In this document: positions 1,167-13,246 of the stretch, in pieces
Position numbering within the stretch: the stretch's first letter is position 1
How the letters are laid out: each line of letters begins with the position of its first letter
IMG/VR virus record: IMGVR_UViG_2630968558_000006
Source: a virus
Lineage: Duplodnaviria > Heunggongvirae > Uroviricota > Caudoviricetes
Direction: 5' to 3' (one strand)
Length of the DNA: 14,950 bases
Notes under the pieces: model-generated
Database searches by the model: none
Told to the model about the DNA's origin: nothing
Seen by the model: the letters and a program-made list of their open reading frames with translations, nothing else
Position numbers and translations under genes: made by a program

Positions 1167-1203
1167 ATGAGCAGGTCATTGCTTGCACTGATGACCTGCT
1201 CAT
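1167..1203. repeat. Perfect 13-bp inverted repeat ATGAGCAGGTCAT / ATGACCTGCTCAT with 11-nt spacer
   Basis: Read directly from sequence (1167-1179 and 1191-1203); lies about 80 nt downstream of the QueH-like gene stop on the minus strand; no clean U-run on either strand. Confidence 0.5.
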
Positions 1204-1281
1204 TAATCATGATTATTTGAAAATTAAGGTAGGCGTACTATATATAGAAACACTGCTACGCTCCGTTGGCATAATATAAAA

Positions 1282-1968
1282 TCATTCCTGTCCTTCTTTA
1301 CCGTAGTGCAGTTGACCAATTTTGATTAGAGGGCGTCCCTGAGATTTGCGGTGTAGATTGGTATCGCGCAGTGAATACACGCAGCCACAATATTCCTGCT
1401 GATAGAATTGTTCGCGCTTGCTGATTTCAATCATGCGGGAAGAGCCGCCCTGTTTTCGCCAGTTATAATCCCAGTACACCATGCCCGGATAATGCGCGAC
1501 GGCTCGCCGTCCACAGTCGTTAACCTGCTGCATATTTTTCCAGCGTGAAATGCCCAGTGAGCTACTGATCACACTGAAACCATTTTCAGCGGCATACAGT
1601 GCAGTCCGCTCAAAACGCATGTCAAAACACATGGTACAACGGATCCCTCGTTCAGGCTCCCATTCCATTCCTTTGGCTCGCTCAAACCAGTTGTCTGTGT
1701 CGTAATCAGCATCAATAAATGGCACGCCGTGTTGTTTAGCAAAGCGAATATTCTCATCCTTACGAATTAAATACTCTTTCTGAGGATGAATGTTCGGGTT
1801 GTAGAAAAAGATGGTGTAGTCGATTCCCGAGGCCTGAAGCGCCTCCATCACTTCACCGGAACATGGAGCACAGCAAGAGTGCAGTAATAGTTTTTTTGCC
1901 CCGTTTGGGAGCTCCAATTTGGGGCGTTTGAAATCAGCAACAGTCATAAATGTGTTTATGAGGTTCAT
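1282..1968 (-). CDS. QueH/DUF208-like protein (putative epoxyqueuosine reductase homolog). Start uncertain: ATG at 1968 or 1947; the track ORF extends to a GTG at 2061.
   Basis: Motifs [18 protein letters not shown] (CxxC) and [10 protein letters not shown], which I recall as the cysteine signature of the DUF208/QueH family. No strong Shine-Dalgarno at any candidate start. Confidence 0.6.
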
Positions 1969-2000
1969 GAAAATAGCAAAAAGTGTAGCATCAGAACGGG

Positions 2001-2207
2001 CTATCGGAAACAGATGTCTAAATCTGGTAATGTCTGCTTTTGATGCAAAGCAGACAACCACGGCAGCGCACGAAAATCAGCGATAATGTCGGGATTAATA
2101 ATCGGGTGACGTCCATCACATAGCGAATGTTCCTCTTTCCTGATATCGCTAAATATCGACCATTCGTCATTCTTATCGAACCAGAGCATGCGACTGCCAC
2201 AGCACAT
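2001..2207 (-). CDS. Possible small hypothetical protein (68 aa from ATG 2207; the track ORF runs from GTG 2303 and would overlap the upstream gene)
   Basis: Fills the 262-nt gap between the 140-aa gene and the QueH-like gene; contains [15 protein letters not shown]. No convincing ribosome-binding site, so this is weakly supported. Confidence 0.3.
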
Positions 2208-2693: not shown

Positions 2694-3659
2694 TTATCCT
2701 CTGAAACCAGGCGGAATTTCTGTATCCGGTTCAGAAATATGATTAACACAACGCTGTACAGGTGAACGTCCCAGGCGGATGACCAGTTCGTCCCATTTTT
2801 CGCGGAGCTTTGACGGGCTCATGATGTTTTTTACCCAGAATGGATCTCGCTGAACCCGACCAAACATTTCGCAAATTTGTCTGTGGCTTCTGCCATCCAG
2901 CATCCGCATTGTGCGCACGTCATTGGCCCAGGCAGTCCAGTTAGGCTCTTTTGGTCGCATGATCTCGCCATCATCACTGGCTGCCTGTTCGTAGAGACCC
3001 ACGATCCGCCCCCAGATCCACTGCGCACACGCCAAATCCTCCCTGCTACCCCACTGGCGTTTTTTCGCACTAAACACAACCGCGTCGGAGTTCCGGGTTA
3101 AAAAATCCTGTTCAGTCGTCTGCGGGTCCGGTTGCGAAGCTTCCGGACGAAAAGTGTTTTTATTCTCTGTAGTAATCTCTGTTGTATTCTCTGTAAGATC
3201 ATCAGGCCATTTTGACCCGATGACATTGGGTCGTTTTGAACCAATGGAGCGTTTCATTTTGACCTCTTCCATCGTATCATTTAGACCTGATGGAGCAGCG
3301 CATTTTGAACCGATGGATACGCTCAATTTACCACCATCTAAAAGCTCGCACCCATAGTTGATCGTGTAGAAATTGGTCATGTCGCGCTTTGATTTATTGA
3401 GCTTTTCGCAACGCAAAAGCCCCAGCGTTTTCAGACTTGCAAACGCGCGCTTTAACGTTGACTCTGACCAGAATGGGAACTGTTCCAGCCATTGTTCCGT
3501 TGTGTTATAAATCCAGCGGACACCATCACATTCCATACCGGAATTAGTATCTCTCAACCAGTAATGCAACTGCTGCAACACAATGGCCTCGTTTAAGCCA
3601 ATCTTCATCGCAAGCTGTGTGTTTATAACCAGTGGGCGTTCAGCAAAAAGAAGACTCAT
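2694..3659 (-). CDS. Phage replication initiator, O-like (about 321 aa from ATG 3659; the track ORF begins at an upstream TTG 3713)
   Basis: Sits downstream of the Cro-like dicC and a cII-position ORF; carries an internal direct-repeat (iteron-like) array at 3209-3317 encoded as repeated IGSK peptides. The ATG at 3659 overlaps the end of the upstream ORF (translational coupling). Confidence 0.6.
   Translation of the reverse strand: MSLLFAERPLVINTQLAMKIGLNEAIVLQQLHYWLRDTNSGMECDGVRWIYNTTEQWLEQFPFWSESTLKRAFASLKTLGLLRCEKLNKSKRDMTNFYTINYGCELLDGGKLSVSIGSKCAAPSGLNDTMEEVKMKRSIGSKRPNVIGSKWPDDLTENTTEITTENKNTFRPEASQPDPQTTEQDFLTRNSDAVVFSAKKRQWGSREDLACAQWIWGRIVGLYEQAASDDGEIMRPKEPNWTAWANDVRTMRMLDGRSHRQICEMFGRVQRDPFWVKNIMSPSKLREKWDELVIRLGRSPVQRCVNHISEPDTEIPPGFRG
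3209..3317. repeat. Iteron-like array: five about 23-bp direct repeats, consensus CATTTTGA(A)CC-GATGG, starting at 3209, 3233, 3256, 3279 and 3302
   Basis: Direct reading of the sequence; regular 23-24 bp spacing; the third unit is degenerate in its right half. Preceded by three TCTCTGT-containing repeats at 3163-3198. Confidence 0.6.
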
Positions 3660-4161
3660 AATTCCATCCAGCTTTTTGTTGGTATTGCTGTCGATACGCA
3701 AGCTTGAAAGCAATTGCTTTTTCTATAAGTTCGTCAGTTTCACGATCCACTACGGCAGGATCAGCAAAAAGCAGTCCGGACTCCACCACATCGCCATATT
3801 CTTTGTTTAACCCGGCGATCATATACGTGATGCTTTTTCCGTCACTAATTTCACGATATAACCTGAAATCATTAATCCGGATAGCCTCCATAATTGCAGG
3901 CACTAGCGCCATGAACTTTTCACGCTTATCCCTGGTGTCGATAGCCTTCCAGCGTTCGAATATCTTCACTCGATTAACGCCAAGCGCTCGCTGATCAACC
4001 GCGCCACCTTCATCTGTGACACGCTTAACATCGATGTTCGGGCGCTCTTTCAAAGCCCAGAATGCTTCAGTGATTAATATCGTCGCCTGCTCCTGTGTCA
4101 TTCCTGGTCGACATATCCAGGCATCCAGAGCCTCACGAGCCTGTTCAGGAGTGATTTTCAT
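3640..4161 (-). CDS. Hypothetical phage early protein (173 aa) in the cII-equivalent position
   Basis: ATG at 4161 overlapping the dicC stop by 17 nt; protein-like sequence. Function not recognised. Confidence 0.55.
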   Translation of the reverse strand: MKITPEQAREALDAWICRPGMTQEQATILITEAFWALKERPNIDVKRVTDEGGAVDQRALGVNRVKIFERWKAIDTRDKREKFMALVPAIMEAIRINDFRLYREISDGKSITYMIAGLNKEYGDVVESGLLFADPAVVDRETDELIEKAIAFKLAYRQQYQQKAGWNYESSFC

Positions 4162-4375
4162 TGTTCAACCGCCCCGCCCGCTTCGTCTTACGATATTCGT
4201 CATAAACTTTGGGGTCATACTGAAGCTCCCCGCCAGATGCCTCCTGTAGACGCATCGCGCGACCTTCGGGAACTAAATCCCCTTTCCAGCTATAAAGCGA
4301 AGCCAAACGAATACCAGCTGCTTGTGCAAGTTTTGTTTTTGAACCGAAATACAAAAGAGCGTCAGTTTTAAGCAT
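4145..4375 (-). CDS. dicC: DicC, Cro-like regulator (76 aa)
   Basis: Translation MLKTDALLYFGSKTKLAQAAGIRLASLYSWKGDLVPEGRAMRLQEASGGELQYDPKVYDEYRKTKRAGRLNNENHS matches my recall of K-12 DicC; AAGGTG Shine-Dalgarno; divergent from dicA. Confidence 0.9.
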   Translation of the reverse strand: MLKTDALLYFGSKTKLAQAAGIRLASLYSWKGDLVPEGRAMRLQEASGGELQYDPKVYDEYRKTKRAGRLNNENHS

Positions 4376-6005: not shown

Positions 6006-6063
6006 TTTCTGGTGACGTTTGGCGGTATCAGTTTTACTCCGTGACTGCTCTGCCGCCGTTTTT
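6006..6063 (+). ncRNA. dicF: DicF small regulatory RNA (about 53 nt plus terminator U-run)
   Basis: TTTCTGGTGACGTTTGGCGGTATCAGTTTTACTCCGTGACTGCTCTGCCGCCG followed by TTTTT matches my recall of K-12 DicF (possibly one 3'-terminal difference); located between the ydfB-like gene and dicB as in K-12. Confidence 0.85.
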
Positions 6064-6702: not shown

Positions 6703-9174
6703 ATGAGTAAAGTCTTTATTTGCGCCGCTATTCCTGACGAACTGGCAACAAGGGAAGAAGGCGCTGTGGCTGTAGCCACAGCCATTGAAGCTGGCGACGA
6801 ACGCCGTGCTCGAGCAAAATTTCACTGGCAGTTCCTGGAACATTATCCGGCTGCTCAGGACTGCGCTTATAAATTTATTGTCTGCGAGGATAAACCTGGC
6901 ATACCCCGCCCTGCCCTCGATTCATGGGATGCTGAATATATGCAGGAAAACCGCTGGGATGAGGAGTCTGCTTCTTTTGTCCCGGTTGAGACTGAATCCG
7001 ATCCGATGAACGTCACTTTTGACAAGCTGGCCCCTGAAGTACAGAACGCTGTCATGGTTAAGTTCGACACATGTGAAAACATCACCGTTGATATGGTTAT
7101 TAGCGCACAGGAATTGTTGCAGGAAGACATGGCAACATTCGACGGACATATCGTTGAAGCGTTGATGAAAATGCCAGAAGTTAACGCCATGTATCCGGAG
7201 CTTAAGTTGCACGCCATTGGGTGGGTTAAGCATAAATGTATTCCTGGTGCTAAATGGCCCGAAATTCAGGCAGAGATGCGCATCTGGAAAAAACGTCGCG
7301 AAGGTGAACGCAAGGAAACCGGAAAATACACGTCTGTTGTTGATCTCGCCCGCGCCAGAGCCAATCAACAGTACACTGAAAATTCAACAGGAAAAATCAG
7401 CCCGGTCATTGCTGCCATTCATCGCGAATACAAGCAGACATGGAAAACACTGGATGACGAACTGGCCTACGCTCTCTGGCCTGGTGATGTGGATGCCGGA
7501 AACATTGACGGCAGCATCCATCGCTGGGCAAAAAAAGAAGTTATCGACAACGACCGCGAAGACTGGAAGCGTATCTCGGCATCAATGCGCAAACAGCCTG
7601 ATGCCCTTCGCTACGACCGCCAAACTATTTTTGGCCTTGTCCGTGAGCGTCCGATCGACATTCACAAAGATCCCGTAGCACTGAACAAATATATCTGCGA
7701 ATACCTGACGACAAAGGGCGTGTTTGAGAATGAAGAAACAGACCTAGGCACTGTTGATGTTCTCCAGTCATCAGAAACACAAACTGATGCAGTGGAAACT
7801 GAGGTATCTGATATCCCAAAAAATGAAACCGCGCCGGAAGCTGAACCATCTGTAGAGCGTGAGGGGCCGTTCTATTTCCTCTTCGCAGATAAGGACGGAG
7901 AAAAATACGGTCGCGCAAACAAACTTTCTGGTCTGGATAAGGCACTGGCTGCTGGCGCCACTGAAATCACAAAAGAAGAATATTTTGCCCGAAAAAATGG
8001 CACATACACGGGCTTACCGCAAAATGTAGATACCGCTGAAGATTCAGAACAACCAGAGCCGATAAAAGTTACCGCTGACGAAGTAAACAAAATTATGCAG
8101 GCAGCCAATATCAGCCAGCCTGACGCCGATAAGTTGCTTGCTGCATCACGTGGTGAATTTGTTGAAGGGATTAGTGACCCGAATGATCCGAAATGGGTTA
8201 AGGGGATCCAGACCCGCGATTCTGTGAACCAGAACCAGCATGAATCGGAACGGAACTACCAAAAAGCGGAACAAAACAGCCCAAATGCGTTACAAAACGA
8301 GCCAGAAACGAAACAGCCTGAACCAGTGGCGCAACAGGAAGTGGAAAAAGTCTGCACCGCCTGCGGTCAGACCGGCGGCGGCAACTGCCCTGATTGTGGC
8401 GCGGTGATGGGCGACGCAACATACCAAGAAACATTCGATGAAGAGTATCAGGTTGAAGTTCAGGAAGATGATCCGGAGGAAATGGAAGGCGCTGAACATC
8501 CACACAAGGAGAACACTGGCGGCAATCAGCATCACAATAGCGATAATGAAACTGGCGAGACGGCAGATCACTCAATTAAGGTGAACGGTCATCACGAAAT
8601 CACATCCACCAGCAGGACGTGTGACCATCTAATGATCGACCTTGAAACCATGGGAAAAAATCCTGATGCCCCGATCATCTCAATAGGTGCAATATTTTTC
8701 GATCCGCAAACCGGAGATATGGGACCCGAATTTAGTAAGACTATCGATCTGGAAACTGCTGGCGGAGTCATTGATCGGGACACCATTAAATGGTGGCTTA
8801 AGCAATCACGCGAAGCGCAATCTGCCATTATGACCGATGAAATCCCGTTAGATGATGCACTGTTACAATTGCGGGAATTTATCGACGAAAACTCCGGTGA
8901 ATTTTTTGTTCAGGTCTGGGGAAATGGAGCCAACTTCGACAACACGATTTTGCGCCGTTCATACGAACGGCAGGGGATCCCCTGCCCGTGGCGTTACTAC
9001 AACGATCGCGATGTACGCACAATCGTTGAGCTGGGGAAAGCCATAGACTTCGATGCCAGAACGGCTATTCCATTCGAAGGTGAGCGCCATAATGCACTTG
9101 ATGACGCCCGTTACCAGGCAAAATACGTTTCAGTTATCTGGCAAAAACTGATCCCGAGTCAGGCTGATTCTTAA
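6703..9174 (+). CDS. ydfE: Prophage exonuclease (823 aa): N-terminal YdfE-like region, acidic low-complexity linker with a CxxC...CxxC zinc ribbon, C-terminal DnaQ-like DEDDh 3'-5' exonuclease domain
   Basis: N-terminus MSKVFICAAIPDELATREEG... matches my recall of the K-12 ydfE remnant. Zinc ribbon CTACGQTGGGNCPDCG (about 8350-8400). Exonuclease motifs MIDLETMG (Exo I), GNGANFDNTIL (Exo II) and HNALDDARY (Exo III) in about 8620-9174. GAGG Shine-Dalgarno 10 nt before the ATG. Confidence 0.85.
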   Translation: MSKVFICAAIPDELATREEGAVAVATAIEAGDERRARAKFHWQFLEHYPAAQDCAYKFIVCEDKPGIPRPALDSWDAEYMQENRWDEESASFVPVETESDPMNVTFDKLAPEVQNAVMVKFDTCENITVDMVISAQELLQEDMATFDGHIVEALMKMPEVNAMYPELKLHAIGWVKHKCIPGAKWPEIQAEMRIWKKRREGERKETGKYTSVVDLARARANQQYTENSTGKISPVIAAIHREYKQTWKTLDDELAYALWPGDVDAGNIDGSIHRWAKKEVIDNDREDWKRISASMRKQPDALRYDRQTIFGLVRERPIDIHKDPVALNKYICEYLTTKGVFENEETDLGTVDVLQSSETQTDAVETEVSDIPKNETAPEAEPSVEREGPFYFLFADKDGEKYGRANKLSGLDKALAAGATEITKEEYFARKNGTYTGLPQNVDTAEDSEQPEPIKVTADEVNKIMQAANISQPDADKLLAASRGEFVEGISDPNDPKWVKGIQTRDSVNQNQHESERNYQKAEQNSPNALQNEPETKQPEPVAQQEVEKVCTACGQTGGGNCPDCGAVMGDATYQETFDEEYQVEVQEDDPEEMEGAEHPHKENTGGNQHHNSDNETGETADHSIKVNGHHEITSTSRTCDHLMIDLETMGKNPDAPIISIGAIFFDPQTGDMGPEFSKTIDLETAGGVIDRDTIKWWLKQSREAQSAIMTDEIPLDDALLQLREFIDENSGEFFVQVWGNGANFDNTILRRSYERQGIPCPWRYYNDRDVRTIVELGKAIDFDARTAIPFEGERHNALDDARYQAKYVSVIWQKLIPSQADS

Positions 9175-9517: not shown

Positions 9518-10813
9518 ATGAGAGAAGTTGAAATGAAATATCCGACAGGCGTGGAAAACCATGGAGGGAAATTACGTATCTGGTTTGTTTATAAAGGCGT
9601 AAGAGTCAGGGAAAACCTGGGGGTTCCTGACACAGCAAAAAACAGGCGCGTTGCAGGTGAGCTACGCGCCTCTGTTTGTTACGCAATAAAAACTGGTGTT
9701 TTCGACTATGCAAAACAGTTTCCCTCCTCACGCAATCTGGAAAAATTTGGTGAGACCCGACAAGATTTAACCATAAAAGAACTGGCTGAAAAATTTCTGG
9801 CACTGAAAGAAACTGAAGTCGCAAAAACATCACTCAACACATACCGTGCCGTCATCAAAAATATCCTGAGCATAATCGGTGAAAAAAATCTTGCCTCATC
9901 GATTAATAAAGAAAAATTACTGGAGGTTCGTAAAGAGCTACTGACTGGATACCAGATCCCCAAAAGTAACTATATTGTTACACAACCAGGGAGATCGGCT
10001 GTAACTGTAAATAATTACATGACAAATCTTAACGCCGTGTTCCAGTTTGGTGTTGATAACGGTTACCTGGCAGATAACCCGTTTAAGGGGATCTCGCCAT
10101 TAAAGGAATCAAGAACCATTCCGGATCCTCTTTCGCGGGAGGAATTCATCCGTCTTATCGATGCGTGCAGAAATCAGCAAGCCAAAAATTTATGGTGTGT
10201 TTCTGTTTATACTGGCGTTCGCCCTGGTGAGCTGTGTGCACTTGGATGGGAGGACATAGATCTGAAAAATGGAACAATGATGATCAGGAGAAATTTAGCA
10301 AAAGACCGTTTCACGGTACCAAAAACACAGGCGGGAACCAATCGGGTCATTCATCTTATTAAGCCAGCAATCGACGCTCTCCGGAGTCAGATGACATTAA
10401 CGAGACTGAGCAAAGAGCATATCATTGATGTTCACCTCAGAGAGTATGGCAGAACAGAAAAACATAAATGCACCTTTGTTTTTCAACCTGAAGTGTCAGC
10501 GAGAGTAAAAAATTATGGTGACCATTTTACCGTTGACTCAATAAGGCAGATGTGGGACGCAGCGATAAAACGTGCCGGACTCCGCCATCGAAAATCATAT
10601 CAGTCGAGACATACTTATGCCTGCTGGTCGCTGACAGCTGGTGCTAACCCGGCATTTATAGCAAACCAGATGGGCCATGCAGATGCGCAAATGGTATTTC
10701 AGGTATACGGAAAATGGATGTCTGAAAACAATAATGCACAGGTAGCTTTGTTAAATACACAGTTAAGCGAGTTTGCCCCAACCATGCCCCATAACGAAGC
10801 AATGAAAAATTAA
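9518..10813 (+). CDS. Lambda-family tyrosine integrase (431 aa; alternative ATG at 9533)
   Basis: Size and position next to the host junction; C-terminal tyrosine-recombinase-like segment (...HRKSYQSRHTYACWSL...HADAQMVFQVYGKW); corresponds positionally to intQ of K-12 Qin, which is defective there. Confidence 0.85.
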   Translation: MREVEMKYPTGVENHGGKLRIWFVYKGVRVRENLGVPDTAKNRRVAGELRASVCYAIKTGVFDYAKQFPSSRNLEKFGETRQDLTIKELAEKFLALKETEVAKTSLNTYRAVIKNILSIIGEKNLASSINKEKLLEVRKELLTGYQIPKSNYIVTQPGRSAVTVNNYMTNLNAVFQFGVDNGYLADNPFKGISPLKESRTIPDPLSREEFIRLIDACRNQQAKNLWCVSVYTGVRPGELCALGWEDIDLKNGTMMIRRNLAKDRFTVPKTQAGTNRVIHLIKPAIDALRSQMTLTRLSKEHIIDVHLREYGRTEKHKCTFVFQPEVSARVKNYGDHFTVDSIRQMWDAAIKRAGLRHRKSYQSRHTYACWSLTAGANPAFIANQMGHADAQMVFQVYGKWMSENNNAQVALLNTQLSEFAPTMPHNEAMKN

Positions 10814-11000
10814 TTTAATATTTATCAAATAGTTAACACGCATGGCTCTTGAAATCCATAAATTCAAGTGCCGTACCTAACCATCCTGATACCGCTGCCT
10901 TCACTAAATCCTTAGTGCTTCTTTCATGTTTTTCTATTGTCATAATTATTATCTCTAAATAAGAGGTAAGATGCGTACTGCTTATCCGCTGTTATTGATA

Positions 11001-12020
11001 TTATTCAGAAAAAGTGAGTAAAACTTTGCAGCAATGCTTTTGATCATTTTCAAATAATGAAATAGCATCAGCGACATGTTGATAATCAAAGGTATGAATA
11101 ATTAATTTATCAGGGTTAATTAAACCTTTGCTTAGCCAGTCGATAACCACCGGAAATTTATTGGCATTTAACCGAGAAGAAAAAATAGAGAGTTCCTTGC
11201 CGGTAATTCCCTGTTGAATAACTTCAGACGGCTCACTGGAGAATCCCATTAACACAATTCGTGCCGCAGGAGATGCCAGCATAACCGCTTCTTTCAGAAT
11301 TGATGGATGACAAGCGGCATCAATAATTAATGTTGGTTTAATACCCTTTTCAGCGAATATTTCGCCAAGCGGTGTCTGGCTGTTATTAATCGCCCAATCT
11401 GCTCCGCTCTCTTTCGCTTTGTCCAGTCGTTCATCAATGCGATCGGCAACAATCACATTTTTAACGTTATAGACCCCCTTTAATACCTGAACAATAGTCA
11501 GACCAATTGGACCTGCGCCATAAACCAGCACGGTGTCATCTTCAGTCGGTTGACCGTGTCCGGTAACGTTCGCCGCAATGGTAAAGGGTTCGATCATTAC
11601 CGCGAATTTATCAGCCACTGCATCGGGAATTTTCCACGCGTTTTTTGCCGGAACTACCGCATATTCGCTAAAACCGCCGTCGGTGTGAACACCTAATACT
11701 GCTAGCGTTGTGCAGACGTTCGGCTTACCAATTGAACACGGATAACAATGTCCGCAACTGACTACCGGATCTACCGCAACACGTTCGCCAACTCTGGTGT
11801 TCACTACGCCTTCACCTACGGCATCAATCACGCCAAAAAACTCGTGCCCAATGACGCGCGGATATTTCGCAAATGGATTATGACCGCGATAAATATGACT
11901 ATCCGATCCACAAATCCCGGCGAGTTTCACTTTTACTCGCACTTCACCCGCTGATGGGGTAGGTATTTCCCGTTCGATAATCGCCAGTTGATTCGGTTTT
12001 TCAATTAAGATGCTTTTCAT
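11001..12020 (-). CDS. rspB: RspB, zinc-type alcohol dehydrogenase-like starvation-sensing protein (339 aa)
   Basis: MKSILIEKPNQLAI...GICGSDSHIYRGH...GHEFFG...VLVYGAGPIGL matches my recall of K-12 RspB; GGAG Shine-Dalgarno overlapping the rspA stop. The track start at 12044 lies inside rspA and is rejected. Confidence 0.9.
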   Translation of the reverse strand: MKSILIEKPNQLAIIEREIPTPSAGEVRVKVKLAGICGSDSHIYRGHNPFAKYPRVIGHEFFGVIDAVGEGVVNTRVGERVAVDPVVSCGHCYPCSIGKPNVCTTLAVLGVHTDGGFSEYAVVPAKNAWKIPDAVADKFAVMIEPFTIAANVTGHGQPTEDDTVLVYGAGPIGLTIVQVLKGVYNVKNVIVADRIDERLDKAKESGADWAINNSQTPLGEIFAEKGIKPTLIIDAACHPSILKEAVMLASPAARIVLMGFSSEPSEVIQQGITGKELSIFSSRLNANKFPVVIDWLSKGLINPDKLIIHTFDYQHVADAISLFENDQKHCCKVLLTFSE

Positions 12021-12031
12021 TATTTTACTCC

Positions 12032-13246
12032 TTACCAGTTCCATAACGTGCCATCTTCCAGACGTGCGACTGGCAGATAAGCAGGTTCGTAGGGATATTT
12101 CGCCGCCAGCTTTTCATCGAACTCGATGCCAATACCTGGCTTGTCACCCGGATGCATATAGCCGTTATCGAAGCTCCAGTTGTGCGGGAACACTTCGAGC
12201 ATTTGTTCTGAGTAGCCCATGTATTCTTGTACGCCAAAATTCGGCACCCACAGGTCAAAGTGCAAAGCCGCAGCCATGCAGACTGGTGACAAATCGGAAG
12301 GGCCGTGTGAGCATGTGCGCACCTGATAAAGCGAAGCAAAATCCGCAATCCGACGCATACCGGTAATGCCGCCTGCATGGGTCAGCGTGGTACGGATATA
12401 GTCGATAAGTTGCTCTTCAATGAGCTGTTTACAGTCCCAAATGCTATTGAAGACTTCACCCACCGCAATTGGCGTGACGGTATGTTGGCGAATCAGACGG
12501 AAACACTCCTGGTTTTCTGCGGGGGTCGGATCTTCCATCCAGAACATGCGAAAATCTTCAATGCTTTTACCAAAGCGCGCCGCTTCAATAGGCGTTAAGC
12601 GATGATGCATGTCATGCAGCAAATGTTCATCAAAACCAAACTTGTTACGTACCGCGTCGAACAGTTTTGGCATGAAGTCGAGATATTTTTCCGTTGACCA
12701 CAACTGCTCTTCTGGCCACTGCCCTTTGGTCGCAGGTTCATAGGCCTGCCCTTTTCCTTTGGACATACCGTAAGTCGTTTTCATGCCAGGAATACCGCAC
12801 TGCACGCGGATGGCCTTGAATCCCAGTTCCTGATGACGGGCATAATCATCCAGTGCCTCATCAATACTGTGACCGGTGGTATGGCAATAGACCATCACCC
12901 CTTCGCGAGACGCGCCGCCGAGTAACTGGTAAAGCGGCATGTTGGCAGCTTTGGCTTTAATGTCCCATAGCGCCATATCAACGGCTGAAATGGCCGACAT
13001 AGTCACCGGGCCGCGACGCCAGTAAGCACCTTTATAGAAAAACTGCCAGATATCTTCGATACGGTGGGCATCGCGGCCTATAAGTTGCGGACACAGGTGA
13101 TCCTGCAAATAGGACGCAACGGAAAGCTCGCGTCCGTTGAGAGTGGCATCACCAAGACCGGTAATACCGTCCTCGGTGGTGATTTTTAAGGTGACGAAAT
13201 TACGCCCCGGACAGGTAACAAAAACTTCAGCCCCTACAATCTTCAT
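12032..13246 (-). CDS. rspA: RspA, enolase-superfamily mannonate dehydratase-like starvation-sensing protein (404 aa)
   Basis: Translation matches my recall of K-12 RspA nearly throughout (start [39 protein letters not shown]...); AAGGAA Shine-Dalgarno. Confidence 0.95.

Follow-up and report, generated by a model that had tools for sequence, protein, structure and literature searches.

A queH gene as variable cargo of Qin-type lambdoid prophages in Escherichia coli and its possible part in cobalamin-independent queuosine completion

Two enzymes of unrelated fold and cofactor, QueG and QueH, are associated with the reduction of epoxyqueuosine (oQ34) to queuosine (Q34) in tRNA. The enzyme of Escherichia coli, QueG (YjeS), depends on cobalamin and on Fe-S. 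Escherichia coli does not synthesize cobalamin de novo and its tRNA stays at the oQ stage when the cofactor is absent. QueH reduces oQ independently of cobalamin and takes the place of QueG in organisms to which cobalamin is inaccessible, and loss of QueG tracks with absence of cobalamin (PMC5615194). In S. aureus, a QueG/QueH pair with distinct cofactors has been read as a case of cofactor-dependent redundancy (PMC13443448). The structure of QueH from Thermotoga maritima has been solved (7LC5, 7LC7, 9DEU), and the PDB includes C9S and D13N mutants of this enzyme. Li et al. reportedly assigned the residue-to-metal ligands of QueH in 2021; six cysteines, distributed over CCAP, CxxC and CGC motifs, presumably hold a [4Fe-4S] cluster and an adjacent iron.

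Among phages, two kinds of system invite comparison. The 7-deazaguanine DNA-modification clusters, which combine DpdA with FolE, QueC, QueD and QueE, have deazaguanine and queuosine metabolism in common with queH. Hutinet et al. (2019) found no homologues of QueA, QueG or QueH in the viruses that they analysed; the phages harbouring such clusters are reported to be without these three enzymes (PMC6884629). Lambdoid morons and auxiliary metabolic genes are single genes of bacterial origin that are lodged between phage modules, vary in presence and have a putative promoter of their own. The queH gene described here shares all of these features, and differs from typical lambdoid morons in that its predicted target is a tRNA modification step rather than a surface, toxin or exclusion function and in that it is without a clear terminator of its own.

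The DNA under study, referred to as the window, is a stretch of 14,950 nucleotides that holds the right-hand portion of a lambdoid prophage of the Qin type and its host flank. On the minus strand the order of transcription is a cro-like gene, a YdaT/cII-like gene, an O-like gene (2694-3713), a DUF977/Ren-like gene (2231-2653; Pfam PF06163, phrog_142), a truncated DNA methyltransferase gene, queH, the hok/sok type I toxin-antitoxin locus (514-838; Pfam HOK_GEF, Rfam sok) and rem (61-297). Within hok/sok, the sok antitoxin RNA spans 664-838 on the same strand (Rfam, 115 bits). The opposite strand accommodates a cI-like repressor gene, the DicF small RNA (6007-6058, plus strand; Rfam, 72 bits), homologues of dicB and ydfD, a gene for an 823-residue exonuclease, an excisionase gene and the integrase gene (9518-10813); DicF and sok are both typical of Qin-type prophages. 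Host genes follow, starting with rspB (11001-12044) and continuing with rspA, ynfA, ynfB and speG. The first-pass annotation had placed the gene in a lambdoid prophage, and the position of queH between the replication module and hok/sok, together with that of the integrase next to rspB, bears this out. The prophage end falls between integrase and rspB, at 10814-11000. As to the 823-residue protein (6703-9174, plus strand), its sole Pfam domain is an Rv2179c-like 3'-5' exoribonuclease domain in the last 170 residues, and the N-terminal 640 residues, with an acidic low-complexity stretch among them, have no Pfam match.

The same arrangement is present at 99.5% identity in E. coli B REL606, E. 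coli C and ATCC 8739, and at 99.8% in the isolated Escherichia phage HannyBb, which encodes an identical QueH protein. Elsewhere in the REL606 prophage, outside the window and downstream of the Q antiterminator (462-2682 of its locus), lie a fragment of a YbgA-family (DUF1722) gene and a fragment of the '2-thiouracil desulfurase family', parted from each other by an IS3 insertion; they amount to a second Fe-S enzyme of modified-nucleobase metabolism as phage cargo in this strain.

The longest open reading frame at the queH position extends over 1282..2061 on the minus strand and specifies 259 residues from a GTG start. Its translation had been read as a QueH/DUF208-like protein on the strength of CxxC and YCGC motifs, both of which are present, the former as CTMC. 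This identification is sustained by family profile, sequence match, conserved cysteines and predicted fold. A search with the Pfam QueH profile (PF02677) returned a significant, end-to-end match (E 2.7e-65) that spans positions 1-174 of the 175 in the profile and scores 220 bits, with the cutoff at 23.5; a chance match is thereby excluded. The sole match of phmmer in the PDB is T. maritima QueH (7LC5, E 5e-22), from which the prophage protein differs in sequence (∼31% identity), as it does in being phage-borne rather than chromosomal. All six cysteines expected of an Fe-S enzyme of this family are in place: C25, C26, C104, C107, C187 and C189 align with C9, C10, C87, C90, C169 and C171 of the T. 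maritima enzyme and are invariant in 24 aligned sequences, namely the prophage protein, 22 proteobacterial homologues and the T. maritima sequence. An AlphaFold2 model (pLDDT 78, pTM 0.80) has as its top five Foldseek matches in the PDB structures of T. maritima QueH (7lc7 and 7lc5 among them), with target-normalised TM scores of 0.78-0.80; the next matches, TtuA and argininosuccinate synthetase of the adenine-nucleotide-hydrolase-like type, have E-values about 1e6 times weaker. The solved enzyme and the prophage protein thus share the cysteine pattern (CC...CxxC...CGC), the profile span and the predicted fold.

Two differences from the T. maritima enzyme are found in the sequence itself. A basic C-terminal tail of ∼25 residues is common to the prophage protein and its proteobacterial homologues and sets them apart from the T. 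maritima protein. Furthermore, the position of T. maritima Asp13, the fifth of the CCAPx motif, is taken by Cys29, giving CCAPC in place of CCAPD. The role of this residue has been probed structurally for Asp only, in the T. maritima enzyme. The loss of Asp13 was considered as a mark of an inactive or divergent enzyme and this notion was rejected: cysteine is the majority form of the family, found in 102 of 150 representatives at 50% clustering, with aspartate in 3 of the 150, and Cys29 is therefore no oddity. A scan of the reading frame against NCBIfam gave no QueH match, which is attributed to a gap in that library because RefSeq uses the name QueH for the protein and the Pfam evidence settles the matter. 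Taken together, the gene is almost certainly an intact queH, predicted from its sequence and modelled fold to encode a cobalamin-independent Fe-S epoxyqueuosine reductase.

In phage resources the gene has remained unnamed, being annotated 'hypothetical protein' in HannyBb and 'unknown function' in PHROGs, where the prophage protein belongs to phrog_3217 (E 5e-136). The profile of this group has 188 positions and, compared with window 1285-1947, starts at QueH residue 34. It therefore seems that the start of many phage gene calls has been set at an internal methionine, so that the CCAPC motif is missed, a circumstance that may explain the label. The identity of the gene is already known: the exact protein is named QueH in RefSeq and UniProt, and for this reason the gene is filed here as known; family, chemistry and structure are not new. 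The searchable literature yielded no account of a QueH from E. coli or from a prophage, nor of queH as cargo of E. coli prophages.

The reading frame of 1282..2061, which the first-pass annotation had equated with the gene, does exist; as a gene extent, its 5' end is 114 nt too long. In E. coli B REL606, RefSeq places the coding sequence on 666 nt that correspond to 1282-1947 of the window (minus strand) and specify 221 residues beginning MTVADF. DNA homology with chromosomal queH genes begins at 1952-1959, that is, 5-12 nt on the 5' side of this ATG, and an alignment of N-termini reveals the same initial methionine in queH homologues. An alternative ATG further upstream, at 1968, is missing from other alleles in an alignment of five contexts. 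Because of the RefSeq start, the limit of homology, the shared methionine and the loss of the upstream ATG elsewhere, the segment 1948-2061 is interpreted as a non-coding 5' leader. The 259-residue version of the protein was rejected, its N-terminal extension being without conservation.

Blastn breakpoints delimit the DNA that moves with the gene. Apart from separate hok and DUF977 blocks, the only part of the window that recurs in an ST131 prophage whose replication module is different is the interval 1276-2062, at 92.6% identity; in related phages with a longer methyltransferase gene, homology stops at 2068. The mobile unit is therefore a cassette of about 787 bp (1276..2062, minus strand), made up of the coding sequence and a 115-nt leader (1948..2062, minus strand) that travels with it and is conserved across different prophage backgrounds. 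Immediately upstream, at 2049-2234 on the minus strand, lies the N-terminal part of a DNA methyltransferase gene, recorded in RefSeq as a pseudogene 'missing C-terminus'; its PHROG DNA methyltransferase matches span profile positions 3-61 of 117 only, and longer versions, of 118 residues or frameshifted, occur at two related loci. To judge by these sequences, arrival of the cassette in this lineage cost the methyltransferase gene its 3' part.

The presence or absence of a gene at a fixed slot is a hallmark of a moron, and the interval from DUF977 to hok, whose borders are the DUF977/Ren-like gene and hok/sok, indeed varies between otherwise homologous prophages. In other E. coli it is occupied by genes for a HEPN protein, a DUF5677 protein, an alpha/beta hydrolase, DUF7167 with small open reading frames, or a SAM methyltransferase. 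Across E. coli lambdoid prophages, this interval (904-2230 in the window) constitutes a hot spot of interchangeable cargo, and its further contents comprise a TehB/DUF1971 gene and a gene for a 3'-5' exoribonuclease-domain protein. The two bordering genes are conserved neighbours of queH: in 75 of 80 IMG/VR loci with this QueH, the DUF977 gene immediately precedes queH in the same orientation, and in 69 hok is downstream; the methyltransferase remnant is present in 13.

The leader contains a candidate for the promoter of the gene. The element TGCTACACT, at 1982..1990 on the minus strand, is located 34 nt upstream of the queH ATG and fits the extended -10 promoter pattern (TGnTAnnnT). It is invariant in five aligned E. 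coli contexts and present upstream of queH in all 80 IMG/VR loci, at a distance of 34-35 nt. Counterparts (TGCTACAAT, TGCTACACT or TGCTAAAAT) precede chromosomal queH in Scandinavium, Kluyvera, Enterobacter, Symbiopectobacterium, Erwinia and a Citrobacter-type locus, with a spacing of 33-35 nt in the first four, where it was measured. The -35 region upstream of TGCTACACT is poor, and a simple scan for consensus promoters and terminators found nothing adjoining queH, TGCTACACT itself falling below the threshold, so that the proposal of a promoter is an argument from conservation. The pattern suggests that queH brought its own promoter from its chromosomal source.

Other signals in the neighbourhood are less distinct. 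Direct reading of the sequence ahead of the ATG disclosed no recognisable Shine-Dalgarno motif, and an Rfam scan of the window, which returned sok and DicF only, detected no riboswitch or other RNA in the leader. A perfect 10-bp inverted repeat, TGTCTGCTTT/AAAGCAGACA, with a 6-nt spacer (2031..2056) is located where the cassette begins on its upstream side, ∼40 nt ahead of the putative -10 element, and is only partly conserved in other alleles. On the downstream side, 79 nt past the queH stop, a perfect 13-bp hairpin (1167..1203, minus strand) is followed by a weak U-tail, CUUGUUG. It has an RNA fold z-score of -2.2 and is situated outside the conserved cassette, as 904-1275 is absent from the ST131 context; this hairpin may serve as a terminator.

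The closest relatives of the protein outside the Escherichia prophage pool are found in Scandinavium (92% identity), Kluyvera (90%), Enterobacter (89-90%) and Symbiopectobacterium (88%), followed by Erwinia, Gibbsiella, Photorhabdus, Providencia and Proteus at 80-86%. The contexts inspected, in Erwinia, Scandinavium, Enterobacter and the Citrobacter-type locus, are all chromosomal and non-phage. In Erwinia the order is purL-queH-glrK, seen only for a single Erwinia protein, at two metagenomic loci; a tblastn search with GlrK gave no match in other species. The Scandinavium gene adjoins a short-chain dehydrogenase gene, a gene for a metallo-beta-lactamase-fold protein and hcp, that of Enterobacter adjoins genes for a DeoR regulator and a GH28 hydrolase, and in the Citrobacter-type locus the neighbour is a LysR regulator gene. 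These chromosomal genes of the Enterobacterales have the same start codon as the prophage gene and the closest of them (Scandinavium, Kluyvera, Enterobacter, Symbiopectobacterium and Erwinia) also the same extended -10-like element upstream, whereas the prophage gene has phage replication genes on one side and hok/sok on the other, and is gained and lost along with the prophage. The comparison points to capture of queH from an enterobacterial chromosome together with its extended -10-type element. The QueH proteins of this clade are unusually conserved, with 75-80% identity even to those of Sphingomonas, Stenotrophomonas and Paracoccus, and identity alone therefore cannot date the transfer.

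The gene had been called unexpected cargo for such a prophage, which overstates the case. Of 5426 complete E. coli genomes, 985 (∼18%) have a full-length queH, and 1047 have a match when fragments are counted; carriers include REL606, ST131, the O104:H4 strain C227-11 and some O157:H7 strains, and all E. coli copies bear the RefSeq label 'epoxyqueuosine reductase QueH'. The exact protein of the window is recorded from about 1000 contigs. That the host already possesses QueG, as the first-pass annotation had stated for E. coli, holds without exception: queG was detected in all 5426 genomes and is intact in the carrier REL606. Wherever E. coli has QueH, the step is thus already provided with an enzyme. 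The two proteins have the same predicted reaction in the same cell, queG being a core gene and queH an accessory one.

This universal presence of queG lends some appeal to the idea that queH is a redundant passenger, brought in by illegitimate recombination and hitch-hiking on successful prophages with no gain beside QueG. The location of the gene in a recombination hot spot with interchangeable cargo is in keeping with it, as is the occurrence of degenerate queH pseudogenes on plasmids. The sequences of the phage copies speak a different language. Between the allele of the window and that of ST131 there are 35 synonymous and 7 non-synonymous differences, corresponding to dS 0.31, dN 0.013 and dN/dS 0.043, a ratio that is drawn from two phage alleles, since against Erwinia synonymous sites are saturated and no value is computable. 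While phage-borne, queH is under purifying selection. The 985 full-length copies, and the maintenance of cassette and leader across prophages with different replication modules and downstream neighbours, likewise argue against a gene adrift, and we consider a mere passenger unlikely.

A role that accounts for retention may be sought in the supply of the cofactor. QueG needs cobalamin and E. coli cannot make it de novo; hence prophage QueH would provide a second, B12-independent route, by which lysogens would complete queuosine when cobalamin is scarce. The enzyme would reduce oQ34 to Q34 in tRNA-Asp, -Asn, -His and -Tyr, and the cassette, equipped with a putative promoter of its own, occupies the variable interval from DUF977 to hok of Qin-type prophages in the manner of a moron. 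Three elements of this scheme are predictions: that QueH is enzymatically active in E. coli, that it is expressed in lysogens from the conserved TGCTACACT element, and that the sparing of B12 benefits the lysogen. An effect of the prophage enzyme on the queuosine status of host tRNA, as the first-pass annotation had envisaged, is plausible from the sequence. No large physiological difference between oQ-tRNA and Q-tRNA is known, which leaves the selective benefit in some doubt. The explanation as a whole, in which an intact, captured queH is carried as a moron and spares B12 for lysogens, is judged probable; its physiological component, the B12-independent completion of Q34 in lysogens, is put at roughly even odds.

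An alternative is that a functional QueH serves the phage rather than the lysogen, being expressed in the lytic cycle as part of the early-right operon and topping up Q34 so that NAU and NAC codons of the phage would be read with the preferred speed or accuracy. The early genes cro, O-like and DUF977 are transcribed in the same direction as queH, which lies directly downstream of them; the gene has also been retained by a viable isolated phage, HannyBb. Its own conserved promoter-like element, inherited from chromosomal queH, fits this proposal poorly, and many close prophage relatives are without the gene. In addition, tRNA turnover in a single lytic cycle is limited. A benefit confined to the lytic cycle is accordingly given little credence by comparison with completion of Q34 in lysogens.

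A part in conflict has also to be weighed. In the service of defence or counter-defence, QueH might alter the anticodon-loop chemistry of Q-tRNA and thereby either block or enable an anticodon nuclease, or it might act on 7-deazaguanine in DNA. The slot holds genes for HEPN, DUF5677 and exoribonuclease-domain proteins in other strains, which leaves some room for a role in conflict between phages, and its neighbours on either side are a Ren-like exclusion gene and hok/sok. The protein itself displays nothing of the kind: it is 80-92% identical to QueH of other Enterobacterales, its catalytic cysteines are intact and it has no extra domain. PADLOC gave no match for QueH, its sole match being the methyltransferase remnant (orphan and type II MTase models). 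The observation that the window is devoid of partner genes of 7-deazaguanine modification was upheld, as Pfam scans of the other main open reading frames revealed phage replication, immunity and integration genes and the host genes rspB to speG only, with no DpdA, TGT, QueC, QueD or QueE; the signature genes of the phage modification clusters are hence missing here. The absence of QueA, QueG and QueH from viruses with deazaguanine-modified DNA (PMC6884629) weighs in the same direction. The suggestion of a nucleoside-modification or anti-defence role, raised when the gene was first annotated, finds no support in the PADLOC result or in the gene content of the window, and a conflict function of QueH is held to be very improbable.

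Should the phage copy be active, E. coli lineages would differ in tRNA wobble modification according to prophage content and B12 supply, with E. coli B (REL606), E. coli C, ATCC 8739 and ST131 on one side and K-12 on the other. This would bear on studies of tRNA modification, on codon-dependent expression in production strains and on the reading of queG mutant phenotypes, and would furnish a clear case of a temperate phage with a host tRNA-maturation enzyme. A bolder and decidedly tentative view is that queH of temperate coliphages is an 'epitranscriptome conversion' gene, kept, in the radical version, because Q versus oQ decides the outcome of phage-phage or nuclease-tRNA conflicts at a hot spot otherwise occupied by HEPN-type genes. 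If so, about one fifth of E. coli strains, ST131 and the laboratory strains of E. coli B among them, would finish queuosine without B12, and K-12 and most other strains would stall at epoxyqueuosine when B12 is absent.

Some records of queH fall outside the prophage pool. Matches from a tblastn search of phage collections other than HannyBb were not counted, as they are either faecal contigs without annotation or records of 280-380 kb, probably of bacterial DNA. Entries that look mislabelled or contaminated include records of 330-380 kb under the name 'Acinetobacter phage MD-2021a' and a contig labelled 'Bacillus subtilis' whose copy is 78% identical. On the E. coli plasmid pZ1323HEC0393-2, a frameshifted and truncated queH pseudogene is located at 3911-4285, near transposase remnants. 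Divergent queH sequences (∼70-75% DNA identity) occur on this and some 60 other E. coli plasmids; on the others the matches span only 18-44% of the gene.
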